A stretch of DNA of 64,000 nucleotides from Dictyostelium discoideum (lineage: Eukaryota), in contig CM000150.2 in NCBI GenBank assembly GCA_000004695.1, positions 1,792,001-1,856,000 of the forward strand, in the 5' to 3' direction. Both the position numbers and the translations under genes were made by a program. A model generated the notes under the pieces. It was not told the DNA's origin. It saw only the letters and a list, made by a program, of their open reading frames with translations, and ran no database searches. Of this stretch, positions 433 through 22,000 are shown in pieces; position 1 is the first letter of the stretch; every line of letters begins with the position of its first letter.

Positions 433-436
<4 letters not shown>

Positions 437-490: not shown

Positions 491-494
<4 letters not shown>

Positions 495-928
495 TCTTTT
501 TTATATGAAAAATGAAATAATCAAAAAAAGAGATTGTTGTTGTTGTTTGTTTTTTTCGATCTGATTATTTTTTGCTTTTTTTTTGAAAATTTTGCTACGC
601 AAAATTCTCAAAACGAAACAAATAATAAATTACAATAAAGTAAAAAGATGGCTTTTTAAAATAGTTTATTTATTTATTTATTTGTTTTTTAAGTCTTTTT
701 TATATGAAAAATGAAATAATCAAAAAAAGAGATTGTTGTTGTTGTTTGTTTTTTTCGATCTGATTATTTTTTGCTTTTTTTTTGAAAATTTTGCTACGCA
801 AAATTCTCAAAACGAAACAAATAATAAATTACAATAAAGTAAAAAGATGGCTTTTTAAAATAGTTTATTTATTTATTTATTTGTTTTTTAAGTCTTTTTT
901 ATATGAAAAATGAAATAATCAAAAAAAG
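491..928 (+). repeat. A 199-bp tandem repeat with copies at 491-689, 690-888 and 889-928, the third cut by the gap. It is a candidate 5' promoter module (A-module-like) of a TRE5-type retrotransposon.
   Basis: The unit begins taagtcttttttatatgaaaaatgaaataatc and the copies are near-identical, with a period of exactly 199 bp. Assigning it to the TRE5-A A-module is from memory only and is not verified. Confidence 0.85.
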
Positions 929-1028
929 NNNNNNNNNNNNNNNNNNNNNNNNNNNNNNNNNNNNNNNNNNNNNNNNNNNNNNNNNNNNNNNNNNNNNNNN
1001 NNNNNNNNNNNNNNNNNNNNNNNNNNNN
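929..1028. other. An assembly gap of 100 N, true size unknown.
   Basis: A run of N characters. Confidence 0.99.
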
Positions 1029-3373
1029 GTCTTATACACACAATATACAAGAAAGGCAACCCCTTACTCATATCAAATCGTCGTCCCATTACACTTCTAA
1101 ACACTGATTACAAGATCCTCTCAAAAGTAATCAATGCACGTCTTCTGAGAATACTTCCTTTCATCATCAACAACAACCAAACTGGTTTCGTACCCCACAG
1201 ATTCATCATAGACAACATCATCAACATCAATGAATTAATCAACTACCTCAAATCTAAAAACCTCCCTGGTATCATCACACTATTTGACTTCTTTAAAGCA
1301 TTTGATTCTATCTCTCACGATAGCATTAAAAGAACATTAATTCATATTGGTATACCAATAAAATTAATAAATTTAATCCACAAGCTATTATCTGACTCAC
1401 AAGCAAAAATTTCAATTAATGGTAAAACGACCAGAAAATTCGATATTAAAAGAGGTGTAAAACAAGGTGACCCAATCTCAGCCACTTTATTTGTAATTGT
1501 AATTGAAATATTAGCAAGAACAATAAATGCAGACAATTCAATAATTGGATTACCAATTTCACCCAATCCACAAATTAAAATTAAATTTACCCAATTTGCA
1601 GACGACTCTACAACATACAACATCAACTACGAACAACAACAACAATCAATCAAACATTTCGATAATTTCTGCGCTTCAACATCATCATCATTAAATTTTG
1701 ACAAAAGTGCAATAATAGAAATCAACCCCCACAAAATCACTGATAAACACATAATAAACAACATTCCACAATCAAAAAGAATACCAATAACCAAAAAAGA
1801 TCAATCAGAAAGAGTTCTTGGCTATTTCTTTAATCATAATGGTTTACATAGGAAATTACCAGAAACAATGAAAACACTGATTAAATCATTAGTGCTATGG
1901 AAAACTAGTGGCACAACATTAAAAACAAAAACAACCATCATAAACACCTACTCACTATCACCAATAACATATTTATCATACCTTGAAGAATTTACAAAAG
2001 ATGAAGAAATTCAAATTAATAAATTAATCTCATGGTTTATGAATTCTCCCGCAAATTCTGAATCACCAACTCTCGATACCAATTCCATTGAAAAAAACAC
2101 ATCAACCATCCATTCACGTGCAAAAATACCTTTGATGTGTTATGATAGATCATTAAAACCATTAAAAGAAGGTGGTTGGGGTATGTGGAATATACAATTA
2201 CGACAAGTTGCTCAAAAGATTTGGATATACAACAGATTTTTACAAATGCATAAATCTGCAAACAATTCAATATACATGATAAGTTGGATGGATCAAATCA
2301 TCAACAAATCAATCTCTTCTCCATACCTTATAAAAATCAAAAAAGAATGGGAAAACTATGCAACTCAAATTGGACATCTAAAAGATAAAGTTCAAATCCT
2401 ACAACCAATATTAACAAAAAACCAACCCTCTCAAACATTAAACACAAATAATATTTCACTACCACCAACACTCAAAGAAATCTACTCGACAATACTAAAC
2501 AATCACCAATGCAAATCAAAAGACTATATTGGCAAGAAATATTCAGATCTACTTCTTACTTCGCACCAACAATCAATACAACTATTATGGAAATACACAT
2601 ACGACCAACTTTTTGTCAAAATTCAAAAATTAAAAGATCCAAAAGGCCGAGATACAATGCAAAGATTCCATGCTAGATGTCTTCCGATTAATCATCTACA
2701 CAACAAAGTTTGCCCCATTTGCAACAATGAAATGAATAATGATCCCTATGGTCATTTGTTCTTCAATTGTCAGCACACAATCAACTTCATTAACCACGAC
2801 AAATTAAAATATTTTATATATAAAAATTGCAATGGAAACAAAAACTGGTCACTAACAAAAAACCAAACAACAAAATTATACACACTCATTTATAAACCAC
2901 AAACAAACAACAAAGCATTTAAACCAGATCCAACTATCAATATTAATTTTCATTTTGCAGAAAACGCACAATATAAAAAATACAGGTTCAACTGGAATTA
3001 TATAAACACAAATCTTGATCTAGTCAGAACACATGCATATTGGAACATAATCTCATTAGTTATTCAACAAATATGGATATGGTTATGCAAATCATTATTT
3101 GACATCAATATAACTCAATCAATTGATAATTGGAACAACCAAATAAACAACACAACACTAGATTATGATATATTAAAATCAAAATGGCACAAGCTAATAA
3201 GATTGGAATATTCAAGAACTTTATCAAACTTTAACCAATACTCAATTAAAAACAACCTCACAAAAACTCAAAAAGAAACCCAATGGTCCGAAACCATCAA
3301 AAAATTTAAAAAAGAATGGAGCATAAACACAAATGAACCAATTCCAACAATTACACCACCAATTAATTATTAA
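1029..3373 (+). CDS. Retrotransposon ORF2, covering the reverse-transcriptase domain to the C-terminal zinc-finger-like domain. It is 5'-truncated by the gap, and the frame is continuous from 1082 to the stop at 3371-3373.
   Basis: The frame is open from the gap edge. The ORF track lists only 1868..3373 because that is the first ATG. The conserved RT blocks are listed under the mobile element. Confidence 0.8.
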
Positions 3374-3564
3374 TTACCTAATCTAAAATAACATACTATT
3401 TTAAATTCACAAAAACTAAAAAACCTAAAATAAATAAATAAAAATAACATACTAATTGTATACTACAATAGTTTATTTATATCAAAAAAAAAAAAAAAAA
3501 AAAAAAAAGATTCGAAAAAACTCACAAACTTTTTTTGTAATATATATATATATGAGATGTTTTT

Positions 3565-6231
3565 TTATTTATTTAATTTATTTTCAAAATATAATAATAA
3601 TCTTTTTGAAGCAATTTTTTCCAAATTTATTTTTGTAATTGGAATGAATTGGAAGAGAAATTCAAATATTTTGATTTTGTTTGATTTTATTGAAAATGAT
3701 AATAAATCTTCAAGATATTCCAAATGCAATATTCCTCCATTTGTTTCTTTATCTTTTAAAAAGAAATCATAATTTTCATGAATGAATTCTAGGGTTTTTA
3801 AATTTGAATCCACTATTGATTTCCATATAATTTCATAAAATAAGTCAGGAACAAGCAATTTAAACTTATCTGATGTTGTTGGTGATGTTGTAATATAATT
3901 TAAATGTTTGAATAGTAAATCTAATAATTTTAAATCACCATTTTTAGAATAAACATTAAATGGAATTAAAAATTCATATGGGTCTTCAGTTTTAAAGTAA
4001 TTTGATTTTGTTTCAATTTCTTCAAATCTACCAGCGGCACAAAGAAAATAAATCCATTGAAATTGGTCAACAATGAAATTTGAACCAATTTTCATTTTAT
4101 TTGAATAGTTTACATAAATCCAATCCAAAAGTTTAAAAAAATTTAAATTCTCCCATAATTTAGTTAGTTTTGTTTCTTTATCTTTAAACTCAATTAAATC
4201 TAATATAATTGGTTTATGATTTTCCAATAATAAATTAGAAAAACCAATATCATTAAAAAATGAAGGAACATTGAAAATTCTTGGATTATTACTTTTTTTA
4301 TTTTGATAATTAATATTTTCATTTGAAAGAATATATAAATTTATTTCATTTGAAAAATTCTCTATACAATAATCCCTTAAACCTCTAAATTCATATTCTT
4401 GATTTTCTTTAGTTTCAAAAGTTATCATTTTTTCATAATGTTGTAATACATTTAAATCTTTAAAACAATAAAGAATTGTTTTATAATTATCTTGATTAAA
4501 AAAAATAAAATGATCTTTATGATTTTCAAATAAATAATCTAATACCAATATTGATTTTATATAATAAGTAATAAAAAAAGGAAATCTACCAATAAACTTT
4601 TTTGGATATTTCATTAAATTTCCAAACTGATTTGATACATACTTTATTAATTCTAAATCATTATAATTAATAATAAAATAAAAAAGTAAAAGTTTTTGTT
4701 CTTCCAAGTTTTGATTATCAAAATTTTCTTTTGAAATAAAATTTGATTTTAAAACTTGTAAAATATTAAAAATAAATTCAATTTGTTTATTTTTATCATT
4801 ACAATTTGAGAAAAGGATATTTGGAGATTTAAAATAAAAACAAAGATTATTTATTTGAAGTTCTATTGGCGTTAATAATTTAAAAACTGTATAATTTGCA
4901 AATCTTAATGAATTTTCAAAACTTGTATTACTATCACATTGATTATTCATTTTATCATTTAATTGATTTTCATCTAAACTATAATAACCCAAATAAAAAG
5001 ATAGAGGTAAATTACTTAAATTCCAAATTAAACAATGAAAATCCAATAATTTTTTAATAAATTCTTTATTTTCATTATCATTTGTATTTATTGGATCACC
5101 AAGTTTTGATTTTAATTTCTCTTTATTTAATTTATTTTTAAAATTTTCAATATTATTTAAAGTTATAGTTGAATTGTTTTTAATATTATTATATATTTTA
5201 TTTATTTGTTCATTTTCATTTTCATTATTATTGTTATTAATTAAAATTAAAACTAATTTTACAATTGTAATTAATTGTTTTAATGTTAAATCTTGTTTTA
5301 TTTTTTCAAAAATTGAAATAATTTTAAAAAGTGTTGAAAATTCAATGGATGATGATGATTGATAATTATTAAATAATTTATAATTTTTATAAAAACAATA
5401 TAATCCTTTAAATAATAATCCATTTGAATAATTACTAAAATTATATTTTATATCATATATATTTTCTAAATGATTTTTTGATAATTTAAAATTATTATTA
5501 TTAATTTGTTGTTGTTCTTGATTTAAAAGGTATTTAATAAATTTTTTTGAACCTCTAATTATTGATAATTTTATATCATCAATTGTTGGTTCATAATTAA
5601 ATTCTTCAACCAATAGTTGATATAATTCTATATTGTTTGCAATGATAATATAATTGGAAATTATAGTGGTAAAATCAGTATCAAAATTAATATGATTTTT
5701 AAATAATTTTCTATAAAATTCTTTATCATTTTTAATTGATCTAAATAATCTAATTAAATAACCATTCTTTGTTAATAAATCATCTTCAAAATGTAAATAT
5801 CTACAATTTCTTTTAACTTTTTCTTTTAAAATACCAAATTGATCAAATTGTATTAATTTCTCTACTGATATAATTGAATCATAGCTTGACGAAAATTGTT
5901 TATTCATAAATGACATTATTTTCTTAAAAATAGTTTTATTTCTAAATACTTTCCAAAATAATAATTCAACTATTTCAATACCTTCAAATAAAGTTATTTT
6001 ATTGATTTTATTAAATGAATTAATATTTTCATCTTTTTGTTTTTCTTCTAAATAGATTTGTTTCATTTTTATAATTGATCTAATTCTTTCAATAATCTCT
6101 TTTTTTTTTAAATCTTTTGTATAAATACAATATGATTTTCCAAGTTTTGAAATAAATTCAAAACTTTTACTTTCTAAATCATTTAAATTAATTTCATTAT
6201 TATTATAATAATTATTATAATTATTATTCAT
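3565..6231 (-). CDS. Hypothetical Asn/Lys/Ile-rich protein of 888 aa in a single exon.
   Basis: An uninterrupted 2.67-kb ORF with Dictyostelium codon usage, an ATG in an A-rich context and a stop at 3565. I recognise no domain in it. Confidence 0.55.
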   Translation of the reverse strand: MNNNYNNYYNNNEINLNDLESKSFEFISKLGKSYCIYTKDLKKKEIIERIRSIIKMKQIYLEEKQKDENINSFNKINKITLFEGIEIVELLFWKVFRNKTIFKKIMSFMNKQFSSSYDSIISVEKLIQFDQFGILKEKVKRNCRYLHFEDDLLTKNGYLIRLFRSIKNDKEFYRKLFKNHINFDTDFTTIISNYIIIANNIELYQLLVEEFNYEPTIDDIKLSIIRGSKKFIKYLLNQEQQQINNNNFKLSKNHLENIYDIKYNFSNYSNGLLFKGLYCFYKNYKLFNNYQSSSSIEFSTLFKIISIFEKIKQDLTLKQLITIVKLVLILINNNNNENENEQINKIYNNIKNNSTITLNNIENFKNKLNKEKLKSKLGDPINTNDNENKEFIKKLLDFHCLIWNLSNLPLSFYLGYYSLDENQLNDKMNNQCDSNTSFENSLRFANYTVFKLLTPIELQINNLCFYFKSPNILFSNCNDKNKQIEFIFNILQVLKSNFISKENFDNQNLEEQKLLLFYFIINYNDLELIKYVSNQFGNLMKYPKKFIGRFPFFITYYIKSILVLDYLFENHKDHFIFFNQDNYKTILYCFKDLNVLQHYEKMITFETKENQEYEFRGLRDYCIENFSNEINLYILSNENINYQNKKSNNPRIFNVPSFFNDIGFSNLLLENHKPIILDLIEFKDKETKLTKLWENLNFFKLLDWIYVNYSNKMKIGSNFIVDQFQWIYFLCAAGRFEEIETKSNYFKTEDPYEFLIPFNVYSKNGDLKLLDLLFKHLNYITTSPTTSDKFKLLVPDLFYEIIWKSIVDSNLKTLEFIHENYDFFLKDKETNGGILHLEYLEDLLSFSIKSNKIKIFEFLFQFIPITKINLEKIASKRLLLYFENKLNK

Positions 6232-6759: not shown

Positions 6760-7287
6760 ATCAAAATGTTTTTTTTAATTATTCTTTATCTGAATAACAA
6801 CACATTCACATCGGAATATTATGATTTTTTAAAATAATAATATAACGATAAAAATAAGGATTTATTGTTATTGTTTTAATTTTTTTAATTTTACTATAAA
6901 AATCGGATTAATTAATGTTATCAAATATTTTTTTTTTTTTTTTAAATTTTTATTTTTATTTTATAATATTATTTTGATTAAAAATCCTTTTTTAGCAATA
7001 AAAAACAGTTTAATCACCTTTGGTTGTGATCTTATTATCATAAAATGATATAATTATCACTATTTTAACCTTGGATTACTTTTATTATTATTATAATTAT
7101 TTATTAATATTAAAATTTTAATTATTTTTATTTTTTTTTTTCCACATAAATAAGAAATTTTTTTTTTTTTTTAAATCATTCAATATATCTTTTATTTATT
7201 AATTAAATAAAATTTTAATAATTACATATTTTAAGTTTATTTTTCATATTATTTAAATATTTTATTTTGTATATAAAAAAACTACAG

Positions 7288-7318
<31 letters not shown>
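6232..7318. promoter_or_regulatory. Divergent intergenic region shared by the minus-strand gene that starts at 6231 and the plus-strand gene that starts at 7319. It is AT-rich with long homopolymers.
   Basis: Inferred from the gene orientations. No specific site was identified. Confidence 0.3.
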
Positions 7319-7321
<3 letters not shown>

Positions 7322-9673
7322 AAATTTATAACTTTCTTTGTATTTTTCCTTATTATTGTATTTATAGTAAATGGCCAAGGTTCAGTAAGTTCATCGTCAA
7401 ACAATTCTCCCTCATCTTCATTAGATTCTTTGAAACCAGGATCAGAAGGTTCAATAAGTTCATCACAATCTGGATCTGAAAGTTCAAGAGGCTCTTCACA
7501 TTCAGCACCCGAAGTTCCAACTGGTTCTTCACATTCAACCTCTGAAGTTTCAAGTGATTCTTCAAACTCAGCATCTAAAGTTCCAACTAGTTCTTCACAT
7601 TCAGCTTCTGAAGCATCTACTGGCTCGTCACATTCTGAATCAGAAGTTCCAAGTGGTTCAACACATTCATCATCTGAGGTTTCAACTGGTTCATCAAATT
7701 CAGCCTCTGAAGTTTCAATTGGTTCATCACATTCAACATCAGAAGTTTCAACTGGTTCATCACATTCAACATCAGAAGTTCCAAGTGGCTCATCACATTC
7801 AACATCAGAAGTTTCAACTGGTTCATCACATTCAGCCTCTGAAGTTTCAATTGGTTCATCACATTCAACATCTGAAGTTCCAACTGGCTCATCACATTCA
7901 TCATCTGAAGTTCCAACTGGCTCATCACATTCATCATCTGAAGTTCCAACTGGTTCATCACATTCATCATCTGAAGTTCCAACTGGCTCATCACATTCAT
8001 CATCTGAAGTTCCAACTGGTTCATCACATTCAGCCTCTGAAGTTCCAACTGGTTCATCAAATTCAGCCTCTGAAGTTCCAAGTGATTCATCACATTCAGC
8101 CTCTGAAGTTCCAAGTGGCTCTTCACATTCAGCCTCTGAAGTTCCAACTGGTTCATCACATTCAGCCTCTGAAGTTCCAACTGGCTCATCACATTCATCA
8201 TCTGAAGTTCCAAGTGATTCATCAAATTCAGCTTCTGAAGTTCCAACTGGTTCATCACATTCAAATTCTGAAGTTCCAACTGGTTCATCACATTCAGCAT
8301 CTGAAGTTTCAACAGGTTCATCACATTCAGCATCAGAAGTATCAACAAGTTCATCACTTTCAGCTTCCGAAGTTTCAGCTGGTTCGTCACACTCAGCTTC
8401 TGAAGTATCAGCTGGTTCATCAAATTCAGCATCCGAAGTTCCAACTGGTTCGTCACATTCTAAATCCGAAGTTCCAAATGGTTCATCACATTCAGCTTCT
8501 GAAGTTCCAATTGGCTCTTCACATTCAGCATCCGAAGTTTCTACTAGTTCTTCACATTCAGCATCCGAAGTTCCAAATGGTTCATCACATTCAAGATCCG
8601 AAGTTTCAACTAGTTCTTCAAATTCAGGATCTGAAGTTTCTACTAGTTCTTCACATTCAGGATCTGAAGTTTCGACAAGTTCTTCAAATTCAGCTTCTGA
8701 AGTATCAACTGGCTCATCACGTTCAACATCAGAAGTCTCAACTAGTTCTTCAAATTCAGCATCTGAAGTTCTAAGTGGCTCTTCAAATTCAGCATCTGAA
8801 GTTCTAACAGGTTCTTCAAATTCAGCATCTGAAGTTCCAACAGGTTCTTCAAATTCAGCATCTGAAGTTCCAACAGATTCTTCCAATTCAGCATCTGAAG
8901 TTCCAACAGGTTCTTCAAATTCAGCATCTGAAGTTCCAACTGGTTCTTCAAATTCAGTAACTGAAGTTCCAACTGGTTCATCAAATTCAGCATCATCAAA
9001 TTCAGTGTCCGAAGTTCCAACTGGTTCTTCAAATTCAGTAACTGAAGTTTCAACTACCTCATCACATTCAGCATCTGGTTCTTCACATTCAACATCTGAA
9101 GTTTCAACTGGTTCATCACAATCTGGATCAGAAGGCTCAACTGGTTCAAATGGTTCATCACACTCTGGATCAGAAGGTTCAATTGGTTCAGGATCATTAA
9201 ATTCAGGATCAGTGTCACATAATAGTGATAGTGGATCTGAAGATTCAAATGGTTCATCACAATCTGGATCAGAAGTTTCCAATGGTTCATCACAATCTGT
9301 ATCTGAAGGTTCGATTGGTTCAGGATCATTTAATTCAGGATCAGGATCACATAACAGTGATAGTGGATCATCGTTGGATGGTAAAACAACATGTATTTCA
9401 TATCAAGATACTATTTCAATTAAAACTCTTGAAACTGGTGAAATTGAATGTACAGGTAAGGGTGAAACAAGATGTATTTCTGATAATAGCTACAAATGTT
9501 CATCCAAACAAAAACAAGGTTCACTTGAATGCTCTGTAAATGGTTACATAAAATGTACTGGTTCAAATATTAAATGTAGAATTGGTAATACTGTTTGTTC
9601 AATTCAAAACTCACTTTTAGAAATTACTGAAAAACCAATCTTTACAAGAGGTCTTCGTCAATCTCATCATTAA
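7319..9673 (+). CDS. Secreted Ser-rich repeat (mucin-like) protein of 784 aa. It has a signal peptide ([22 protein letters not shown]), about 48 copies of an 11-aa unit ([11 protein letters not shown]) and a C-terminal Cys-rich domain (~14 Cys).
   Basis: The ATG follows a poly(A) tract and the N-terminus has a hydrophobic leader. Codons ggt/tca/cat/gaa/gtt/cca/act are the preferred Dictyostelium set. The three overlapping antisense and alternate-frame ORFs are repeat artefacts. Confidence 0.7.
7470..9060 (+). repeat. A tandem 33-bp coding repeat of about 48 units that encodes the GSSHS[A/S/T]SEV[P/S]T array.
   Basis: Direct inspection shows the unit ggttcatcacattcagcatctgaagttccaact with point variants. 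Confidence 0.85.
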
Positions 9674-9698
9674 ACTTTTTTCTTTTTCTTTTTCTTTG

Positions 9699-9751
<53 letters not shown>

Positions 9752-9908
9752 AAACCTTTTCCTGAAATGTAAAATTAATATATATATATTGTAATTAAAA
9801 AAAGAAAGAAAATAAAATAAAATGATTTATTATTAAAACAATTTTAAATTTACAAATCAAAGTTACAACAACTTTATTTATTATTGTCTATTGTTTATTA
9901 TTATTATA

Positions 9909-12900
9909 TTATTTATTATTATTTCCAGTATTTTGTAATAATTTCTTTAAAGATGCAATTTCTAAATCTTTCTTTTTTATAATTGAAATTAAAGTTTGTT
10001 GATCCAATTTTTCATAATCGAAATGGTCAATATCACGTTCAGAAGCTTCAATTAATATTGGTAATAGTTCTGATAATATTTGATCGCTAGTTGGTCTATT
10101 ATCAGGATTTATATCAATCATTCTAAGTATTAAATTTGATTCTTCAGGGTGTTTACTTGTGAACCAACTTGGTAAAATTCCATTCTTTAAATTCTTAATA
10201 TGAGTAGTTCTTTCAAATTGAGTTTCAAATCCACCTACAATCATTTCAAATAATATAATTCCACAACTATAAATATCAGTTTTATTTGTATACCATGTAT
10301 TAGTATATCCTCCACCTCCAAAAACACCTTTATTTGATAATTGTTCTGGTGATGCATAAGTTAGAGTACCAACACCAACTGTATTCACTGAAATTGAATT
10401 ATAAAACATGAATGGTGTTGTAGATGTTGTTGCTGTTGCTGTTGTTGTTGAAGAAGAAGAAGAAATCGTGCAACCAAGTGATGAATTTAAATGAGTTGTT
10501 GCTGCTGTTGATGATAATGATGAAGATAATGGTTTAGATGGTGAAACTGAAATTGTTGGTGTAATTGTTGATGTTGGTGGTGTTGAAATTGGTATAGTAT
10601 TTGCAGAAGAAGTTGGAGTTGTATCAATTGGAGTAGTGGAGGGTGTATTATTAGTTAATGGTGTTGTTGAAGGTGTGGTAGCAGTAATATCTTTTACCAA
10701 ACCGAAATCACCAATTTTAATGACACCACTTGAAAGGAATAAATTTGCAGGTTTTAAATCCCTATGAATCATACCCATAGAATGAATATAATTAACACCT
10801 GTAATAATTTGTTTAAATAATGATAAAATTGTAGTTTTACTATTATTTTTAAAATCAGGATTCTCTAATAAATCTCTCAATGTTTTACCTTCACAATATT
10901 GAGTTTGAATATATACTGTATATTTTAATCTTAAATTATTGCTATTACTATTTTTATCATTATTTCGATTATTATTATTATTATTATTATTTCGATTATT
11001 ATTATTATTATTTAAATTATTAATACCAATTAATTGAGAATTTGATAATTGTTTAGTTGATAAAGTTAATCCTTTTGGTTTATTTCCTTCACTACTATCA
11101 CTATCACCTATACTACTACTATTACCACTACCACTACTAGCACCACTACCACTACTTGGATTATATATTTTACCTTTTTTCTTTTTTATAGGTTTAACAA
11201 AAGGAATCATTGATTTACTAATTGTTAATGCCTTAATCATCTCTTTAATATTTTCATTTTCAAAATCAATATTATCACTATCACTTTCACTTTCTTCACT
11301 TTCATCACTCTCACTTTCTTCACTCTCACTTTCTTCGCTCTCACTTTCACTATAAATTTCATCACTATCACTTTCTTCAATTTCACTCTCATCACTTTCA
11401 CTATTATTTGTAAGATTGAACTTTTCAAAATATTCACTTATGGAATATTCTTGAGAATTAGTATTGGTTACACTATCATTCAATGAAAATGATATTGATA
11501 AATTTCTTTTGAATGGATATTTTTTATCATTCCTCTTCTTCTTTAAATTACTACTAATACTATTATTACTACAACTACTCTTTTTAAAACCTCCTTTGAA
11601 TTTAATAGAATCTGAAAAATTACTATTACTAACATCATCTTCATCTTCATCTTCATCTTCATCTTCATCTTGATCTTCAAAAAAACTATCATCACTTTCA
11701 TCATTATCATTATTACCAGTACCTAAACTACCCTCAACTGAACTAAAACTTGAAGATCTTGGTTTATTATTTTTTGGATCCAATTCTAACCAAGCATTAT
11801 GATATCTTAAAATATTAATATGATCTAATTTTGCTAATGCTACAACTTCACGTACAACTTTTTCAATTTTACTCGATGCATTTGTTGGTGATTGATTATT
11901 TGATATTGAGAAATTCACTTTCTTTATTGCATATTTATGTCCATCCAATACATACTCTGATAAATAAACTGACCCAAATCCACCTGATCCTAATTTTGAT
12001 ATCTCTTTAAACTCTCTTTGATATCTTAAAATATTACCAAATGTCGAACTTGGTAATGCTTTTTGTTGTTGTTGTTGCTGTTGTTGCTGTTGTTGTAGAA
12101 ATTGGTATTGTTGTAATTGTTGATATTGATAAAAATTTGAAAAAAATGATGAATCAATTAAAAAACTACCTTCTTTTTTTATTGGTTTTTGATAAATTGC
12201 TAAAGGATTATTATTATTATCACTACCACCACCAAATACTTTATTATTTTCACCCTATAAATAAAAAAATACACATTAATCATATTGTTAATATATATAT
12301 ATATATATATATTCACTAAAAATCATACATACAAGTTTTAAATTTGTAACATTTAATGCATTTTGAAATAATTCTCTATAATAATCCAAGTAAAGTGATT
12401 TAAATTGTGATGACCTTAATATATTCGATGGTACACCCATTAATTCAATATCAACTACACTCTTCATAAATGTTGATAATTTCTTTTGATCTAATTGATT
12501 CGATTGAAAAAAGTTTTCTGAAATTAACATTTTTAATAATATCTTTTTTTGTTTAAATAAGTCATCTAATGATTTTTTGAAAAGTATTAGTAAAAATATA
12601 TATATATATATATTTATTATTGTTAATAATAATAATTGTTATCAAACATACCACAAGATTCAACTAATTCCATAGCATCAATTGTATCAATAAAACTTTT
12701 CGATTTTGATAAAACTATATTACCATGATTTTTTAATTTTTTATTGGTTTTATTAATACTACCATTATTATTATTATTATTATCAGAATCAACTTCAGTT
12801 GGAGTTTTCACCTCTTCTTCTTCTTCTTCTTCTTCACCTGAATTTGAGTTTATAACTAGAATTCTTGATTTTGATCTTGTGAGTTCTAATTTTGATGTAT

Positions 12901-13169
12901 TGTTTTTAATGATTTTCTTATATTCTGATCTTAATCTTTCATTCTCTTCATCTCTACTATTACTATTACTATTACTATTACTATTACTATTACTATTACT
13001 ATTACTATTACTATTACTATTACTATTATTACCATTACCATTATTACTATTTATACTGTTAAAATTAAAGTTATCAAAAGAAGGTATTGATACAGAACTA
13101 TGAACTAAATTATATCTTCCATTAAAATAATCATTACTACTACTATTATTATTACTATTACTATTATTA

Positions 13170-13205
<36 letters not shown>

Positions 13206-13333
13206 TTGGGTATATTATCGTTTTTTAAATAATCATCACTACTAATTGCTATTCCTCTGACTACCTGGGCAAAAGCTGTTGATTCTTCTTCAAGTAAAGA
13301 ATTTATCATATTATTTTTATTATCGAACCCCAT
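9909..13333 (-). CDS. eIF2alpha-kinase-family Ser/Thr protein kinase with a GCN2-like catalytic domain. I propose a 3-exon model: 12652..13333, 12333..12565 and 9909..12254, joined across introns 12566..12651 and 12255..12332. The total is 3261 nt, or 1086 aa.
   Basis: The kinase motifs read [54 protein letters not shown] and YASPEQ. The kinase insert sits between beta4 and beta5 and the [15 protein letters not shown] segment matches GCN2 YIQMEYCE. The introns are GTATGT…TAG and the phases are consistent (1, 0). Exons 2 and 3 are well supported (confidence 0.75), while exon 1 is a phase-compatible extension (confidence 0.45). Confidence 0.7.
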
Positions 13334-13583
13334 TCATTAATAATAAGTATCCATACTAATCTAATTTTATAAAATTACTATTATTATTATTATAATTATT
13401 ATTATTACTATAATTATTAATATTAGTTGGTTTTTCTGTTTTTCTGTTTTTTTTATTTTTATTTTTTTTTTTTTTTTTGGGGTTAATATAATACTATTGT
13501 GTCATTCATAAAAAAATAAAAAAAAAATAAAAAATCTTGTTGGTTTTTTTTTTTTTTTTATTTTCTTTTTTTTATTTTATTTC

Positions 13584-13614
<31 letters not shown>

Positions 13615-13956
13615 GAAAACGACACCCACAACTTTTTAATTAAAAAATTTAAGGTAAATTCAAAGAAACCTTTATTTGAAATTTCAATTTTGTTTTTATT
13701 TTTTTATTTTTTTTTATGAGTCAATTTATTAAAATGTCGCTATCATGGAAAATATTAATACAGTCAAATTAAAATATTTCCATAAATGAATAATAAAAAT
13801 TTTAAAAAATAAGGTATTTTTTTTTTTTTATTTTTTTTTCTTTATAAGTTAAATTTTATTATTTTAAAATCTGTGAGTTTTGTATTAATTTTTTAGAAAA
13901 AGCTGACAATATTTTTGATTTGAGACAAAAAAAAATGAATGAATTTCCTTTTTGGT

Positions 13957-13987
<31 letters not shown>

Positions 13988-14910
13988 GGGAAATCAATTT
14001 TTCAAATATTTAAAATCAAATTCGATTTTAATTATTAAAACTATTTTTAAATTAATATAAATATCTTTTGCTATCAAAAAAATTATGATACAAATTTAGA
14101 TTATGTACTATGTATGTTTTTTTGGTTTTTTTCTTTTCAATTAAAAAAAAAAAAAAAAAATACCATATTCCTGCTCTCTTTAAAAAATATAATAGGGAGA
14201 TAAGATTTTGGTCAACTCAAACTAAACTAACCTCATATTAATTTCGATAATATAAAATAGTGTATATATTAATCATTTTTGGAAAATTATTATAATAAAT
14301 AACAATAAAAAAATAATAAAAAAATAAAATTAAAATTTAATTAAATTCTTTGAATAAGGGTGTACATTCTTTATAGAATAATATATACACAAAATTTATC
14401 AATTGATGGTGATCAAAATATTTAAAAAAATTATTTAAAAAAAACCCACTCACCCAGTGTGAGAATGTTCAAAAATAGTTAAAAACATAACACCCATATA
14501 GGGTCAAACCACTAATAAAAAAAAAAAAAATAAAAAGACCACTTTAACCCATTCCCACACACACATATCAGTGTTTAATATATTCATTAAATTTATATAC
14601 AAATTTTTCTTTCACGTGTAAATGTATGATAAATTTTTTTAAAATAAATATATTTTTTGAAAAAAAAAAAAAAATAAAAAAAAAAAAAAAAAAAAATAAT
14701 ATTAAAAGAAAAAAAAAAAAAATAATAATAATACAATTAAATTTATTTATTTATTTATTTATAGAGAAAAGATAACTTATTTAGATATTGTGTATCACAT
14801 TTATTGTTAATATATATAAACAGTAGGGATTTCAATTTAATTATTTGATTTAAAAAATTGATTTTTTTTTTTTTTTTTAATTATTTATTCCTTTTTTTTT
14901 ATTATTTAAT

Positions 14911-14960
<50 letters not shown>

Positions 14961-15138
14961 AATTATATATTATTTAATTTATCAATTGAATTATAATTAT
15001 TTATTTTAGATAATAATAATAATAATAATAATAAACTTTTTTTAAAAAAAATAAAATCACATACAATTAAAATCAAAAACAAATAATATAATATCATCAT
15101 TGCTTCAGTTAATTAAAATAATTGTATACTAATAATTA

Positions 15139-15181
<43 letters not shown>

Positions 15182-15482
15182 CCTTAAAGTAAAATCAATA
15201 CATTTTATTTAAAAATAAAAAAAATCTAAACCTTATTTTTTTTTTTTTTTTTTAAATTAACTTTATTAAAAATATTAAAAAATCAATCATTTTATTTTTT
15301 ATTTTTTTTTTTTTTTAAATATTAATAAATCAATACTATACTATAATTTATAATTTCACTTTCATATATTATTACTATTTTTATACCATTATCAAAAAAA
15401 GTAATTTATTTATAAACACCACCCCCACTCACACAAACACACAATAATTGAATAATTAAAAAAAAAAAAATTTTTAAAATTA

Positions 15483-15532
<50 letters not shown>

Positions 15533-15926
15533 ATTCACTTTTTTAATATAATTATACATATAATATTTCAATAATATTGTATAAAAAAACAAACCATAAT
15601 ATTTTAAAAAAAAACAAAATTTGTAATAATTATTTGTTTATTTTATTTGTTTTATATTTGGTATTTTTTAAAAAATTTGATTATCAATTTTTTTAATTGT
15701 ATTTTTTTTTTTAAAAAAAAAAATTAAAAATAAATTATTGTTTATTTACTAATTAAAAAAATCTATATTTTATATATATATATAGTATTGATTTATTCAA
15801 AATATAATTACAAATTTTAGAGTTCAATTTTATAATTTTTTAATTGTTCAAAAAAAAAAAAAAAATTAAATTAAAAGAAATAAAAAAAACTATATATAAA
15901 AGTATCGACATAAATATAAAATTAAA

Positions 15927-15967
15927 ATGGGTGCAATTGGAAAAACAAAGTAAGTAATTTATTGAAT

Positions 15968-16012
<45 letters not shown>

Positions 16013-16802
16013 ATTTATTAACAATTTAATAATAAAAATAATAAAATAAAAGAGTATTTTTATGGTTAGGTACCATTATATTAATGTTAGCAGGTAGTCT
16101 TGCTATGATTATCTATAATAAACCTTTACAATTACAAGGATTAGGTACAAAAACTATAGTGGGACAGGTGTGGTTTAATGCTGTATTAGCTTTACATTCA
16201 ATTTATTTAATTGGTGTAGGTTTCGAATTAATTTCAAGAGCATATCTTATGATGGTTGGTTCAACTTGTTCAGAACAAAGAAGAGGATTTTTATGTTGTT
16301 TTGTATATTCAATGGTAAATTTTTTATTTATTTTTTTTAAAAAAAATTAAATCTCCTTTTATTTTATTTTTTTTTTAATTATATTTTATTAACAATCTTT
16401 TAAAAATATTATTAATTATTATAGAGTATTTGGTGGAAATTAATGATGATTTTAGGTGTTGTTTCATCTATTGTATTATGTGGTTTGACAGCATTAGTGA
16501 TTGTATTAGAAGGATTTGCAAAAATAAAGATTATTCGTTTAGCAGTTACAGATGCAGTAACATTGGTTCAATTATTCTTTAGTGTAATATGTTTTGTAAC
16601 ATCAAGAGCCACCCAAAAAATGCAAGATGAAGAAGAGGAAGCACTTCATGGTGTTAAAAAACAAGAACTCCAACCAACTAATTCTGCTGCATCAACTCCA
16701 TCTTCTGCTCCACCATGTTATATTGTTGATGAGAAAAAAGATTCTGCTTCTCCATCTGGTCAATCTAAAGATTCTGAACCTTCAGCAGTTTTACCAGCTT
16801 AA
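15927..16802 (+). CDS. Small multi-pass membrane protein of 220 aa with about four predicted TM helices. The exons are 15927..15949, 16053..16314 and 16425..16802.
   Basis: ATGGGTGCAATTGGAAAAACAAA is followed directly by GTAAGT. The acceptors are at 16051-52 and 16423-24, the phases (2, 0) are consistent and the total of 663 nt is divisible by 3. The hydrophobic segments are LWLGTIILMLAGSLAMII, AVLALHSIYLIGVGF, ILGVVSSIVLCGLTALVIVL and LVQLFFSVICFV. Confidence 0.6.
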
Positions 16803-17150
16803 ATATTTTTAAAAAATTTTTAAAAATAATAAAAAACAATAATAATAATTTTATAATACTATCTTTTTTTTTTTAAATAACAAAAAATATTAACAAATAC
16901 TATAACTCAAAGTAAAATAAATGATTTGAATATAATAAAAAAAAAAACAAATAAAAAAAAAACAAATAAAAAAACAAATAAAAAATAAAAAAATAAAAAA
17001 ATAAAAAAATAAAAAAATAAAAAAATAAAAAAAACAAATAAAAAATTAAAAAAAAAAAAAAAATTAAATAGATAACTTTTTTTTTTTTTTGAATATATAT
17101 TTTTTTTTTTTTTTATTTTCTTTTATTTCATTATTTTTTAATTATTTCTT

Positions 17151-17374
17151 TTATTCATTAGATTTACTAGTTAATTGAGCCAATCTTTGTCTAAGTGAAG
17201 CGACAGTTGAATTTAAATCATTTGATGAACTAGTTGATGGTGAATTTTGATGACTATTATTATTATTACTACCACTATTTTGATCAGGATTTAAAGTTCT
17301 TAAACGTTGAAGTGTATTTGAAGCCATTGATGCAGTATTTGATAATTGTGGTGCTATATTTTCATTACCACCAC

Positions 17375-17456
<82 letters not shown>

Positions 17457-18974
17457 TACAACTTGAGATGATGGTTGATTATGTTGATTATAAAATGTAT
17501 TTTGAATTACTTTTAATCTTTCTTGATAATTTACAACTTCATCATCTTTATCTTTTGGTGCATCCATTGAGTCCTTAATCTTTTTAAGATTTCTAGTGAT
17601 ATATGCTTGGAATTGTTGTGAACTTGAATTTAAATTTGGTGTTATATCATAGTCTGGATATTCTCTAATAAAGAAATATAAATCATGAATACCATCCAAT
17701 GTTAAATCTTTATTTCCAATTTTTTTGAAAATTTCAATTAATAACTCTTTCTTTTGTGAATCTGTTTTACCTGAGTAATCTCTTGGTTCTTTATTAATTT
17801 TTAATGTTGATAATGTTGATTGAGTTTTACCAGTTGTTGTTGTTGTTGTTGTTGTTGTTGTAGTATTTGCTGAAGTTGTAGGTAGTTGTTGTTGTTGTGA
17901 ATTACTTGAACCAGTTGAAGTTCTAGATCTTGTTGTTGTTGTTGTTGTATTATTACTATTATGATGATCATTAATTGGTGAATCTAAACTACTATTAATA
18001 TTAATATTATTTATATTTTCTCTTCCACTATTATTATTATTATTACCACCACTACTAACTCTACCACCATTATTATTATTATTATTACTGCCACCACTAC
18101 TTATTCTATTACCATTACCATTACCATTTATTAAATCTTCAAATTGTTTTGGTACTAATTCAATTAAAAGATTAAGTAAATATTGATATTTTTGTTGTTG
18201 ACCTTTTGATATGATATCTTTTGTAAATTTAACAACTTGATTAGTTCTATTTTGATAAAGTTCAGAAGTAAGAGTTTTTGTAGTTTTTCTGGTGATTTCA
18301 TCTAGGGAAGGATTTGATTTTAAGAAGGAATTAATTTCCGATAAGACGGTTTCGACATTTAATTCCTCCAAAATAGAAGGAGTTGTCAAAGATTTAGTAG
18401 CACGTAATAAGCAACGTAACAAAAGATCATTGTATTTACCAGGATGTTGAATGCTTTGATCATTATCAGTTCTAGACATCATTTGAAGTAGCGTACTAAA
18501 CAGTATGGTGCTATTACAATTTTGAAGGATACGTAATAGAATTTGATTGAATGCTTTCGATAATTCAGATTCAGTTCCTTGTTTACTTGAATTTGATTCG
18601 GCCAAACTGTACAATTTAATGGTTTCATTTAAAACGATCTCTAAACATCTAACATTACATTGTTTTGCCACAACCTTATTTGAAAGTATAGAGATAATAG
18701 TATGAATTAAATATTTACAAAGTCTAAGTATTGTAGCATCCTTTGATACCTGTGGGAATGTATCTGCTAAAATACTTGTTAAAACTAAGAAATACTCTTC
18801 TGCAAAATTTACAAATACATCATCAAGTTTACCATTTGCCATTAATCCTGAAAATTGTTTCAATGCTTCAACTGTATGTTCAATATTTTCTTTTGTAATA
18901 CTATAATTTTTTAATAATTCTAAACAACCAATTAATTGTGTTGACATTTCATCTGTTGATAATGATTTACGTGG

Positions 18975-19018: not shown

Positions 19019-19083
<65 letters not shown>

Positions 19084-22000
19084 ATAATTAATATTTTATC
19101 CTGTTGTGATATATTTGAATATTTAAAACATTCATCTTTAATATGTGAATAAAGTTTATTAAGGCAAAGTAATGATGATTGTTTTGATTGAGAATCATTC
19201 AAGTTTTGAGTGATTAATGGAATAACCACTTTAAGGTTTCCACAAACCGATGCTCCATTCTTGTCAATAATTGATGCCATAACATTTAAAACTTCAACAC
19301 GAGTTCTCCAATTTTGTGATGTAACCATTTCAATTGCAAATCTAAATAAAACATTTGGTAAACAAAGTTCTTCCAATTGTTGAATCGATTGTTTAAAGAT
19401 CTGTTTGATTTGTTCATTGGTTGCACTACCTGATTTCTCCAAAAGTATTGGTACCAAACATGATGCTTCATACTCTCCAATCGAGTATTCAGAATCTATC
19501 AATTTATTCAATAATATTTCCAATATCTTTAAAACCCTCTTTTGACTAGCCAAGCCAGTATCAAATAATTTAAATGTTATCCATCTAAATAAAATATCCA
19601 ATACTGATATGATTGCCTCTGGGTTTTGTTCAATCATACCAATCATTAAATCTGACATATGTTGTGAATTTGATGGTAAACTTGAAAACATTAAATTTGC
19701 AAATTCCTCTGTAAAACATTGTAAAACTTGATCTTGAAGTATCTCTACTACCTCTTCAGTTGGTTCAATAAAATGCCAACTTGGTATTTGATTGGTTTTT
19801 TGTCTATTCATTTTACCATTAATATCAAATATTATAAATTCACAATTACTTGCTCCATTATTTGATTGTAAAATTGATCTACGTTGTTGTTGTTGTTGTT
19901 GTTGTTGTGGTTGAGTTGGTTGTTGTTGTTGTTGTTGTTGTTGTTGTCTTATTGGTTGTGGTGAAGATGGTGTTGAAGATTGTTGTGAAGTAGTTGATGA
20001 TGATGATGATGATGATGAAGTTGATTGTTTTGTTTTTGAAGGTGGTGGAATTGGTTGACCAGTTTTTTGATAATATTTATCAAGTATTGTTTGAATTGAT
20101 GGCTGACTAGCAGGTTTAACATGTTTTAATTCTTTTTTAAATTCAATTAGTGGTATTTGAGTACAAAGTATTGATAATAAATTATCAGCTAATGAACGAA
20201 TTTCAGCAGATTTATCTTGTAAACATGAAATGATACCTTTTGCCAATGTATTGATTTCTGATGGTATAGGTGCAGCTTTCATATTGGTAACATTTACAAT
20301 TGTCCAAGCTAATGATTCCTTACGAGTGAATGCAGATTCTTGAATCATTGGTGCTGCCAATGAACCAATGAAAACATCGAATCCCAAATCGGATTGAACT
20401 ATTACATTCATACAACTAATGACAGCATCTCTGACGGGTTTCTTTGAATCACCCAACAACAATAGAATTCCTGGTATCAATAGACGAGCATGCTTTTCAA
20501 ATGATTGACCACCCATTGCCTGTGAAAGCATACCAATGATATTCAATGTTGTAATGGTACATTTCTGATTATTATCGGTCAATCTATTCTTTAAAGCAGG
20601 TATTAGTCCACCCAATTTTGGTTGAATCTTTCTATTGGCATCAATGATAATCCTCTCAATCTCATCCAATGCATCTGAACGAGTTTTCCAATTGGCATCG
20701 GATAGATTAGTGATAATGGCTGGTGTTAACTTTACAGAGATATCAACTCTTGGGAATTCGATTTGAACTGGTGCTGAACCTGGTGGTGGCATACCCTTCC
20801 ATTGTCTATTTGGTACTGGTGGTTTTTGGTCACGTATTTTTTGAAATTCCCTATCGAGTACCTCCATCGTTGGTTTCTTTACATCACCTAAAAAATCGGT
20901 TAAAGTAGCTCCAATATTGATTTTAATTGTACATAATAATTTAATTGCTGATTTTTTTACATCTGGATTCGTAGATTCTAAACATTGTTTAGTATAATCT
21001 AACAATGGTTTCAATTGTTGAATACCATTCGAGCAACATCCAATACCAAATTCATCAATTGCTTGTTGAATCCAAACCAAAGAGTCTGCAATGATCTTTG
21101 GATTCTTATGATTGCTTGTAAATTGATAAATTGATGTGAACACTGCATGAGGTGTTATCGACTCACCTGTTGAAAATAATAATTCACTAGAGATCTCTTT
21201 TAATTTAACATCTGTTAACTTCTCTATACATGTGGTTAAATAACTATTAGCACAACGTTGTTGAGTGAAATTTGAATCATTCTTACAACATTGAATGAAT
21301 ATTGAAAATATACTTGATAAAACTTGAAAATTGGATTCTTTTAAACTTGGTTTATCACATAATAATTGTATAATCGATTCAGACATACCATTGATTGAAT
21401 CTGCTGTTAAACCTTTAACATTCTCTAAAATATCATCAACTGCTTGTAATCTATCTTTCCATTGAGTTTTACCTAATCCTTCAATAATTTCATTATTTAC
21501 TATACCTGCTCCGATTAATTTATTTTTAATATCATCTGATGATGATGGTGGTGGTGGTAATGGTGAAGAATTTGATGATCTTCCTGTTGGTGTAGTTGTT
21601 GATGATGATTTTGAATTACCTGTTGCTGCTGCTGGTTTTTTATTACTACTACTAACTGGTAAATCAATATCTTTTAAATCAACAGGCGCCAATGGTTGTG
21701 GTGTTATTGTAACTGGTGTTGCAACTGCTGGCATATTATCTTTAATTTTCTTTGCTTTAATTGGATCGATTTGATTTAGATATGGTGTCATTGCTCTCTC
21801 ACCAATGATACCACCCAATGCAGCGAATGCTTTAGATGCATTATCTCTAATATTGCTATCAGTATCATTTAATGCCTCCATGAAAATCTTTGTCAATTGT
21901 TTAGTTACTTTAGTGATATCAGCTGGTTTCTTTGTATTGGTGATTGAATTACAAATGAATACCAATACCTCTTGTTTAATTTGTGGTACTTTTGATTGCA

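Follow-up and report, generated by a model that had tools for sequence, protein, structure and literature searches.

The minus-strand gene at positions 13333-9909 of the window (the whole stretch of 64,000 nucleotides that was analysed) can be identified as D. discoideum DDB0229432, a gene of the PEK family, i.e. the eIF2α kinases. It is probably an intact, predicted expressed-type gene for a cytosolic kinase of this family, which is conserved throughout the Dictyostelia and would act via dimerisation, trans-autophosphorylation and phosphorylation of eIF2α at Ser51. The layout of the predicted protein is five-part: a conserved three-helix block (hereafter N-block) behind a disordered Asn/Ser-rich N-terminus, kinase lobe I, an acidic insert of ~280 residues, kinase lobe II with an expanded Thr/Ser/Pro-rich activation loop, and a short amphipathic tail at the C-terminus. 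Judged by this predicted layout, its closest counterpart is HRI (EIF2AK1), with no HRI-type heme-sensing elements detected.

Both gene and family assignment were published as early as 2006, and no new kind of system is described here. What is added is that the predicted protein, contrary to its database label, is not a truncated form of GCN2 and not an orthologue of PERK. As a model, Dictyostelium is tractable and its eIF2α Ser51 pathway is proven, and three of its six PEK-family kinases, DDB0229432 included, have no known activating signal. The conserved N-block and C-terminal tail of DDB0229432 offer a concrete handle for finding such a signal.

Gene identity and gene model

The gene was identified via the supplement of the kinome paper by Goldberg et al. 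2006, where DDB0229432 is classed in group Other, family PEK, subfamily PEK, and predicted to be active. The first 399 residues of the published protein, which is the part of that sequence considered here, are identical to the spliced model counted from Met9. Likewise, assembly GCA_054883475.1 annotates a 1078-aa product that is identical to the model counted from Met9. DDB0229432 also counts among the "three other uncharacterized genes" with eIF2α-kinase-like domains and without obvious regulatory domains that are mentioned by Singleton et al. 2012. A literature search retrieved no functional study of DDB0229432, nor of HRI or PERK in Dictyostelium. A collection of 15 billion proteins, searched for identical sequences, contains neither the 1086-aa nor the 1078-aa form; the neighbouring gene is present in this collection as DDB_G0268918 of AX4. 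A tRNA scan of the window found none.

Joining the three exons (Table 1) yields 3261 nt that are in frame, end in a single terminal stop and encode 1086 aa, which matches the length of ~1086 aa given in an earlier note on this DNA. Both GTATGT...TAG introns were found exactly where that note had placed them, and the splice junctions are identical in two independent annotations. Indels and exon/intron identities were compared with L002, the locus of a ~97%-identical lineage. Each of the 20 coding indels has a length divisible by 3; identity is 96-99.6% in the exons and 87-89% in the introns. This includes exon 1 (96.3% identity, four of four indels multiples of 3) and exon 3 (97.5% identity), in which the coding indels are without exception multiples of 3 and a 14-nt gap straddles the stop codon. 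The comparison with L002 shows that the gene is under purifying selection. Hence, the three-exon structure proposed before, with exon 1 and with ATG 13333 as start, is borne out by its reading frame, its canonical splice sites and its frame-keeping indels. In orthologues of five other dictyostelid genera and species, the N-block runs on across the exon 1/2 junction.

Regarding the start codon, the codon of Met9 is ATA (Ile) in L002, while ATG 13333 and the first eight codons are conserved there. Met1 (13333) is therefore the better-supported start, which suggests a small annotation correction from Met9 to Met1.

Table 1. Features of the DDB0229432 gene and its predicted product (window positions).
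Feature	Position	Strand	Remarks
Whole coding region	9909..13333	-	ATG 13333-13331, stop TAA 9911-9909; 1086 aa
Exon 1, 682 nt	12652..13333	-	Asn/Ser-rich low-complexity N-terminus and first part of N-block
Second in-frame ATG (Met9)	13307..13309	-	start in dictyBase-derived model and GCA_054883475.1
Intron 1, 86 nt	12566..12651	-	GTATGT...TAG; 86.7% identity to L002, 13-nt indel, both splice sites conserved
Exon 2, 233 nt	12333..12565	-	core of N-block; 99.6% identity to L002, no indels
Intron 2, 78 nt	12255..12332	-	GTATGT...TAG; 88.6% identity to L002, 8-nt indel, both splice sites conserved
Exon 3, 2346 nt	9909..12254	-	open reading frame; N-block end, poly-Q linker, whole split kinase domain, C-terminal tail
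N-block, aa ~205-318, ~100 aa	12216..12721	-	predicted helical; span includes both introns; dictyostelids only
Kinase N-lobe, aa 376-466	11772..12044	-	glycine loop GSGGFG, catalytic Lys416 in YAIKK, αC Glu441, NAWLE; alignments to PERK, GCN2, PKR
Kinase insert, aa 467-745, ~280 aa	10935..11771	-	acidic, Ser/Asn-rich; between N-lobe (NAWLE) and YIQTQYC strand
Catalytic centre, aa 746-825	10695..10934	-	with an 18-residue motif; zero substitutions vs P0001
Activation-loop insert, aa 826-925	10395..10694	-	Thr/Ser/Pro-rich; from composition and variation vs P0001
Kinase C-lobe, aa 926-1045	10035..10394	-	T929, G934-T935, SPE, helix αG FETQFER; HMMER alignment to PKR 2a19
C-terminal tail, aa 1046-1086 + stop	9909..10034	-	heptad-like amphipathic segment of 23 residues

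Kinase domain and family membership

Every kinase motif that the earlier note had quoted is present in the 1086-aa translation. These comprise an 18-residue motif (aa 382-399), YAIKK (aa 413-417), a 15-residue motif (aa 753-767), DFG (aa 821-823) and a 10-residue motif (aa 934-943); HRDLKPAN occupies aa 802-809. All catalytic residues are in place. Pfam matched only Pkinase/PK_Tyr_Ser-Thr in the protein, as one domain in three pieces, and detected no RWD, HisRS, dsRBM (PF00035) or luminal domain; the reported absence of RWD, pseudokinase and HisRS domains is thus confirmed. No signal peptide was found and no transmembrane segment, the highest 19-residue Kyte-Doolittle mean being 1.13 and located inside the kinase fold.

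Membership in the eIF2α-kinase (PEK) family is robust, as judged by comparison of the catalytic core. The 19 best sequence matches in the PDB are all GCN2, PERK, PKR or HRI (127-158 bits, E 1e-31 to 1e-45), while the best non-eIF2α kinase reaches 92 bits, which leaves a gap of 35-66 bits. Core identity amounts to 38-44% to PEK references vs 27% to CDK2, and the NAWLE motif of the N-lobe is common to the eIF2α kinases in the PDB. The earlier assignment of the catalytic core to the eIF2α-kinase type is therefore sound.

In an HMMER alignment to PKR 2a19, T929 corresponds to PKR T446, G934-T935 to G450-T451 and T983 to T487. Functional roles of G450, T451 and T487 have been described for PKR (PMC11556786), and all orthologues retain the equivalents of these functionally constrained residues; alignment A1 shows no variation at T983 or E986. 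Relative to P0001, the protein from the ~97%-identical lineage, the kinase core carries one substitution in 290 residues, with none in the N-lobe (aa 376-466), vs 10 in 100 in the activation-loop insert.

Placement among the eIF2α-kinase subfamilies

GCN2, PERK and PKR each score ~150 bits in the PDB search and human HRI is the lowest-scoring of the four subfamilies (127 bits vs about 150), the raw score being uninformative with regard to subfamily. Placement was addressed by a bootstrapped neighbour-joining tree from 275 core columns with 300 replicates. Its 36 taxa include CDK2 as outgroup and 28 non-dictyostelid PEK-family sequences, 11 of them HRI-type; the ifkA/B/C domains were left out. 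Reference sequences came from a homologue search with the insert-free core, which is a source of references and no census, as it returned only proteins below about 520 aa and missed full-length orthologues; many of its best matches are named EIF2AK1 or carry HRI2_3H. Orthologues with N-block, kinase domain and tail were found in D. purpureum, Cavenderia, Tieghemostelium, Acytostelium and Synstelium, and the dictyostelids form a clade in 278 of the 300 bootstraps. The backbone of the tree has a star-like form, and the position of this clade among the subfamilies is without bootstrap support.

The earlier note calls the catalytic domain GCN2-type. On such a reading, the protein would be a GCN2-derived paralogue of ifkA/B/C that has lost the RWD, pseudokinase and HisRS domains. 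This origin might seem attractive, given that the GCN2 set is expanded in Dictyostelium and that no PDB match has a higher total score than full-length human GCN2. This score is inflated, however, by an extra match to the pseudokinase and by low-complexity alignment. In the tree, GCN2 forms a clade in 289/300 bootstraps with DDB0229432 outside, and it is sister to the dictyostelid clade in at most 8/300. Moreover, the supplement of Goldberg et al. 2006 files DDB0229432 under PEK/PEK, apart from the GCN2 subfamily. Descent from GCN2 is thus highly improbable, and the label "GCN2-type" is not supported. Phylogenetic placement, proposed earlier as a check, speaks against the GCN2 grouping in this neighbour-joining tree without ifkA/B/C. 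What remains in common with GCN2/EIF2AK4 and with IfkA, IfkB and IfkC, the latter from the same organism, is the kinase family (39-41% core identity to GCN2), while C-terminal ribosome-binding domains are missing along with the RWD, pseudokinase and HisRS-like domains.

A Dictyostelium PERK orthologue that senses ER stress would be in line with the PEK/PEK entry for DDB0229432 in the kinome supplement (Goldberg et al. 2006), and a C-lobe segment scores 41.9 bits to PERK vs 22.6 to GCN2. The protein also resembles PERK/EIF2AK3 in its large catalytic-domain insert, its long activation loop, an F-x-T-Q-x-ER helix αG and 39-40% core identity. Yet signal peptide, luminal domain and transmembrane segment are all missing. 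At odds with the PEK/PEK label, PERK falls within the sister group of the dictyostelid clade in at most about 19/300 bootstraps, and, according to a review of Dictyostelium ER stress, searching for a PERK orthologue met with no success. It is therefore very unlikely that DDB0229432 is PERK. Unlike PKR, the protein has no N-terminal dsRNA-binding motifs (PF00035).

The likeness to HRI lies mainly in architecture. HRI consists of a helical N-terminus, kinase I, a large insert, kinase II and a C-terminal region needed for dimerisation (PMC12127572). DDB0229432 follows the same five-part order and is likewise predicted to be cytosolic, with its tail likened to that of HRI by sequence only. Its activation-loop Thr is positioned five residues before GT, as is T485 of HRI (PMC12127572). 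In 146 of the 300 replicates, the sister group of the dictyostelid clade consists of HRI-type or unlabelled sequences only, which is the most frequent outcome, though without bootstrap support and with HRI-type sequences accounting for 11 of the 28 non-dictyostelid PEK-family taxa.

The N-block and the C-terminal tail

The description of the N-terminal exons as low-complexity and Asn/Ser-rich is correct for the N-terminus, but not for aa ~205-318. The N-block is conserved and non-repetitive, and the part encoded by exon 2 is the most conserved in all orthologues. A profile of the N-block searched against 1.84 billion representative proteins gave eight hits, all of them dictyostelid orthologues or exon fragments, and none outside the Dictyostelia. 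AlphaFold2 models the block as three long helices with low confidence (pLDDT 63). With this model, Foldseek returned no fold match in the PDB but just two matches, both with E>5.

The helical domain of HRI, PF22949 (HRI2_3H), was considered as a homologue of the N-block, but homology was not accepted. hmmscan against Pfam (E<=10) reported no HRI2_3H in the N-block and only a chance match to Death_3. When seven dictyostelid N-blocks were compared with 16 HRI2_3H regions by hhalign, a colinear alignment of 70 columns resulted, with a probability of 3.4% and P 0.013; with three N-block sequences the probability was 1%. HRI2_3H is carried by fungal and protist relatives of HRI. Furthermore, the N-block (aa 205-318) contains no His and the entire protein no Cys-Pro dipeptide, unlike HRI with its heme-ligating His and its Cys-Pro heme-regulatory motif (PMC12127572). 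HRI-style heme control is therefore unlikely.

It is possible, albeit tentative, that HRI has its amoebozoan counterpart in the dictyostelid clade. This would then be a cytosolic eIF2α kinase dimerised via a coiled coil, whose HRI-type three-helix domain has diverged past recognition by sequence and whose heme ligands have been lost. If so, DDB0229432 would report a different signal, for example, mitochondrial or developmental stress, to the integrated stress response of Dictyostelium.

The C-terminal tail is kept in all dictyostelid orthologues and appears coiled-coil-like from its predicted amphipathic pattern. K/E/L-rich tails after the kinase domain also occur in proteins named EIF2AK1/HRI.

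Proposed mechanism and substrate

Returning to a cytosolic eIF2α kinase as the preferred reading, a mechanism may be drawn up by homology. Dimerisation would be aided by the C-terminal tail, followed by trans-autophosphorylation of T929 and T935 in the activation loop. Then, eIF2α could dock via helix αG with T983 and be phosphorylated at Ser51, which would lower general translation and favour uORF-controlled mRNAs such as bzpR. The dictyostelid-specific N-block probably serves as a regulatory or sensor module. Dictyostelium has a Ser51-dependent eIF2α system, with signalling through Ser51 demonstrated for IfkA and IfkB (Singleton et al. 2012).

Conceivably, DDB0229432 is a PEK-family kinase by descent only, with a physiological substrate other than eIF2α, and the N-block and tail direct the kinase elsewhere. 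The organism already possesses three GCN2-type eIF2α kinases, and DDB0229432, which Singleton et al. 2012 call uncharacterised, is part of a lineage-restricted clade without resolved link to a proven eIF2α kinase. Nevertheless, the equivalents of G450, T451 and T487, the residues most important in PKR for eIF2α phosphorylation, are kept in all orthologues, and the score gap to any non-eIF2α kinase is large. To our knowledge, all characterised members of the eIF2α-kinase family phosphorylate eIF2α. A different substrate is thus rather unlikely.

Inserts within the kinase domain

The insert between β4 and β5 that had been noted earlier is indeed present: ~280 aa split the kinase domain at this position and break the Pfam match into pieces. 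The PDB constructs that align around aa 467-745 lack this insert. Its length varies among orthologues, and it differs from P0001 by 22 substitutions and 32 gap columns.

As to the activation loop, the presence of a Thr/Ser/Pro-rich insert of ~100 aa was correctly recognised: between DFG and GT, the loop spans 110 aa with 28% T, 22% S and 11% P, i.e. 61% Thr/Ser/Pro. Its interpretation as an unusual feature does not hold, since the loops of the orthologues are only ~35-65 aa long and unrelated in sequence, and in-frame indels occur at ~97% identity. Two of these are located at 10572 and 10497 relative to L002; compared with P0001, the insert shows 10 substitutions and five gap columns. By its predicted composition and variation, the insert is a fast-evolving low-complexity expansion and no special feature. 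Both large inserts appear to be poorly constrained low-complexity spacers.

Inserts of such length (~280 and ~100 aa) could also be taken to disable the kinase and to mark a decaying or non-functional gene, all the more as DLG replaces DFG in two orthologues. This is hardly conceivable, though, as the frame is kept across 20 indels, the core is nearly free of substitutions relative to the ~97%-identical lineage, and all dictyostelid groups retain the gene with its full set of catalytic residues.

The orphan PEK kinases DDB0220611 and DDB0220652 resemble DDB0229432 in having no obvious regulatory domains. In contrast to the latter, their published N-terminal sequences, on which the comparison was made, are without the N-block. 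In the published part of their sequences, both contain Ser/Thr/Pro-rich stretches right after DFG.

The Kinase Core and Its Family

The 1086-aa protein encoded in the window is a kinase that retains every catalytic residue together with the hallmarks of the eIF2alpha kinases (PEK family: GCN2, PERK, PKR and HRI). All kinase motifs quoted in the earlier note, including YAIKK, are found in its translation, as are HRDLKPAN and DFG. When the whole protein was compared with the sequences of solved structures, the best 19 matches were all GCN2, PERK, PKR or HRI (E 2e-42 to 4e-31), which bears out the proposed eIF2alpha-kinase type of the catalytic core; bacterial Ser/Thr kinases, NEK1, EGFR and Wee1 follow at E 1e-17. 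The insert-free 296-aa core scores 127-158 bits against the same 19 structures, the next best match reaching 92 bits. In the HMMER alignment to PKR, T929 corresponds to T446, G934-T935 to G450-T451 and T983 to T487. In a deep mutational scan of PKR, G450, T451 and T487 belonged to a small number of strongly constrained sites, and T487 steadies helix alpha-G and is required for the eIF2alpha change that permits phosphorylation (PMC11556786). Judged by the structure-match scores and the residues shared with PKR, membership of the PEK family is thus solid. The substrate would be eIF2alpha, and action of the kinase on a different substrate is considerably less probable.

The raw core scores do not discriminate between subfamilies (GCN2, PERK and PKR each ~150 bits, HRI 127). 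A neighbour-joining tree with 300 bootstraps was calculated from 36 aligned kinase cores (275 columns) comprising PDB-derived human and yeast GCN2, human and mouse PERK and human PKR, database proteins named EIF2AK1, proteins bearing the HRI2_3H domain, protist relatives and dictyostelid sequences, with CDK2 as outgroup. The window protein, the D. purpureum orthologue and paralogue, and the sequences from Cavenderia, Tieghemostelium, Acytostelium and Synstelium form one clade (278/300), and GCN2 forms another (289/300). In 146 of the 300 replicates the dictyostelid clade has a sister group of HRI-type or unlabelled sequences only, but the backbone is star-like and HRI-type proteins account for 11 of the 28 PEK-family taxa outside the dictyostelids. 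GCN2 enters the sister group in at most 8 and PERK in at most about 19 replicates. These bootstrap results support neither the designation "GCN2-type" of the earlier note nor the published PEK/PEK (PERK) label. The architecture agrees: Pfam recognizes the protein-kinase domain alone, split in three pieces, and no RWD, HisRS or dsRBM domain, as had been stated for HisRS and RWD. The protein is without a membrane anchor, no transmembrane segment having been found. Derivation from GCN2, against which the tree speaks, is very improbable, and PERK orthology, disfavored by the tree and the missing transmembrane segment, is no less so; a review of ER stress in Dictyostelium reports that a PERK orthologue could not be identified (PMC6025073).

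Two relatives of the kinase core, P0006 and P0030, belong to diatoms. In P0006 (1421 aa, diatom-like), the PEK-type kinase is preceded by a long N-terminal region and a hydrophobic segment (WPILLLATLCVGTGAIVGY), which amounts to a membrane topology like that of PERK, here in a stramenopile.

Comparison with HRI

The N-terminal exons had been described as low complexity, which does not hold for residues ~205-318. This stretch (N-block) is not low complexity and is conserved across all orthologues. A profile search of 1.84 billion representatives returned only 8 proteins, namely two exon fragments and the six orthologues from D. purpureum, a second 'D. discoideum' lineage, Cavenderia fasciculata, Tieghemostelium lacteum, Acytostelium subglobosum and Synstelium polycarpum. 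The block is modelled by AlphaFold2 as three long helices, at modest confidence (pLDDT 63). In addition, every orthologue carries a conserved heptad-like tail after the kinase domain. Likewise, proteins named EIF2AK1/HRI end in K/E/L-rich tails, and the HRI helical domain (PF22949) occupies the position of the N-block in many of the nearest relatives of the core. HRI shares the five-part layout of the window protein and needs its C-terminus for dimerization (PMC12127572). The N-block itself gave no match to PF22949 with hmmscan, while hhalign aligned the two colinearly over 70 columns, but with a probability of 3.4% (P 0.013), and its model found no match in the PDB with Foldseek. The N-block contains no histidine, and the entire protein no Cys-Pro motif. 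The likeness to HRI thus appears confined to layout, and heme sensing in the manner of HRI is improbable.

Gene Model and Start Codon

The three exons join into 3261 nt in frame with one terminal stop, and both introns begin with GTATGT and end with TAG, which confirms the three-exon model of ~1086 aa. An independent assembly (GCA_054883475.1) is 99.4% identical across 15 kb, and its annotated 1078-aa product has the same two introns and equals the window model from the ninth codon (Met9). A further assembly, GCA_054859355.1 (labelled D. discoideum; protein P0001), is more divergent and served as a natural selection test of the gene model. Exons 1, 2 and 3 are 96.3%, 99.6% and 97.5% identical, versus 86.7% and 88.6% for the introns, which contain 13-nt and 8-nt indels. 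Each of the 20 indels within the coding sequence spans a multiple of three nucleotides, the flanks harbor numerous frame-breaking ones, and all four splice sites are kept. The kinase gene is intact and selectively maintained; with the frame preserved across 20 indels and every catalytic residue present, a non-functional gene is hardly conceivable.

In orthologues from other genera, a conserved protein block runs uninterrupted across the exon 1/2 junction. This contradicts a start at the Met at 12530, which would dispense with exon 1 and which the earlier note had named as a refuting case. The 108-aa database protein P0141 (Logan) begins at this Met and reads into intron 2, but was rejected as evidence for an internal start, since it stems from prokaryote-style ORF calling on a short-read assembly. 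P0144 (93 aa, JGI) is a similar bacterial-style call of exon 2 running into intron 2, and such entries could be mistaken for internal-start evidence.

The ATG at 13333 is directly preceded by two stop codons. The second ATG (Met9, 13307-13309) serves as the start in both the dictyBase-derived published model and the annotation of GCA_054883475.1. In the divergent assembly the first ATG and the following seven codons are kept, while Met9 is replaced by ATA (Ile). The comparison thus favors the first ATG, as originally proposed, over the curated start, which is probably 8 codons too short.

Positions of the kinase gene and neighboring features, and differences between kinase regions of the window protein and P0001
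Feature	Position	Strand	Remarks
Retrotransposon ORF	1868-3373		part of non-LTR retrotransposon (region 1-3461)
DDB_G0268918 (D. discoideum AX4)	3565-6231	minus	ORF exact match
Rejected 666-aa ORF	7282-9282	opposite to downstream neighbor
Downstream neighbor	7319-9673	plus	784 aa, convergent
Repeat in neighbor	7458-8994		about 47 tandem copies of 33 bp
Kinase exon 1	13333-12652	minus
Kinase exon 2	12565-12333	minus
Kinase exon 3	12254-9909	minus
Kinase core			290 residues; 1 substitution, free of gap columns and indels
Activation-loop insert			about 100 residues; 10 substitutions, 5 gap columns, two in-frame indels
Kinase insert			22 substitutions, 32 gap columns

The Activation-Loop Insert

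The Thr/Ser/Pro-rich insert is present as described: the stretch from DFG to GT comprises 110 aa, 61% of which are Thr, Ser or Pro. That it is unusual could not be upheld, since the equivalent loops of orthologues span about 35-65 aa without sequence similarity and the paralogues DDB0220611 and ifkC likewise have Ser/Thr/Pro-rich runs immediately after DFG. Conservation is confined to the last residues before GT (N-T/S-x-G-I/V-G-T), and constraint is sharply unequal between the kinase regions (see table). The insert is not under tight constraint and most plausibly represents a low-complexity expansion, of the kind typical of Dictyostelium, within the already long PEK activation loop; it may add autophosphorylation sites. 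The magnesium-binding motif DFG, kept in D. discoideum, Cavenderia, Tieghemostelium and Acytostelium, is replaced by DLG (IGDLGLVKD) in P0002/P0146 (D. purpureum) and P0145 (Synstelium polycarpum).

Proposed Mechanism and Prior Record

Probably, the kinase dimerizes with help of its C-terminal tail and undergoes trans-autophosphorylation at T929 and T935, before eIF2alpha docks on helix alpha-G and is phosphorylated at Ser51. Translational control that depends on Ser51 has been demonstrated in Dictyostelium, and the kinase would feed into it, with the N-block acting as a sensor or regulatory module. As a whole, this mechanism is held to be fairly probable. Besides the proposed correction of the start codon and the rejection of both subfamily labels, the analysis defines the dictyostelid-specific N-block and tail as entry points in the search for the signal that activates the kinase.

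The gene was already catalogued, and its reading in the earlier note was correct and careful. Goldberg et al. 2006 (PMC1420674, Table S2) list it as DDB0229432 (group Other, family PEK, subfamily PEK, predicted active), and the 399 residues printed there match the model from Met9 onwards across both exon junctions. The three non-GCN2 PEK entries of that kinome paper (DDB0220611, DDB0229432 and DDB0220652) correspond to the three uncharacterized eIF2alpha-kinase-like genes, lacking evident regulatory domains, of Singleton et al. 2012. A literature search found no functional study of DDB0229432. Exact look-up in a 15-billion-protein collection retrieved neither the 1086-aa nor the 1078-aa protein, though the neighboring AX4 protein was present, and the first homologue search returned no AX4 entry for the kinase; possible reasons are a different deposited AX4 model or a missing entry.

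Neighboring Genes and Strains

The window is very AT-rich (GC 10-40%) and contains no tRNA genes. By its exact match to DDB_G0268918 it belongs to chromosome 1 of D. discoideum or of a nearly identical strain. The downstream neighbor encodes a protein with a hydrophobic N-terminus and a Cys-rich C-terminus, and its 33-bp unit translates into an 11-aa Ser-rich repeat. Repeat number is variable, since the product has 784 aa in GCA_054883475.1 and 657 aa in GCA_054859355.1. An ORF of 666 aa that lies antisense to the neighbor mirrors this repeat and was for that reason rejected as a gene.

In GCA_054883475.1, DDB_G0268918 adjoins a 1596-aa ORF (12859-17891 of that locus) with Exo_endo_phos (endonuclease) and RVT_1 (reverse-transcriptase) domains, a non-LTR retrotransposon. 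The alignment with the window stops at window position 1029 and picks up at 168-388 (19051-19271 of that locus); the extent of the retrotransposon therefore differs between the two assemblies. Across 9609-13733, exon identity to GCA_054859355.1 (JBTAPG010000034.1) is 96-97.5% (one exon 99.6%) and intron identity 87-89%, with numerous indels, versus 99.4% for GCA_054883475.1. The former assembly is probably a separate lineage or cryptic species, or carries a wrong label.
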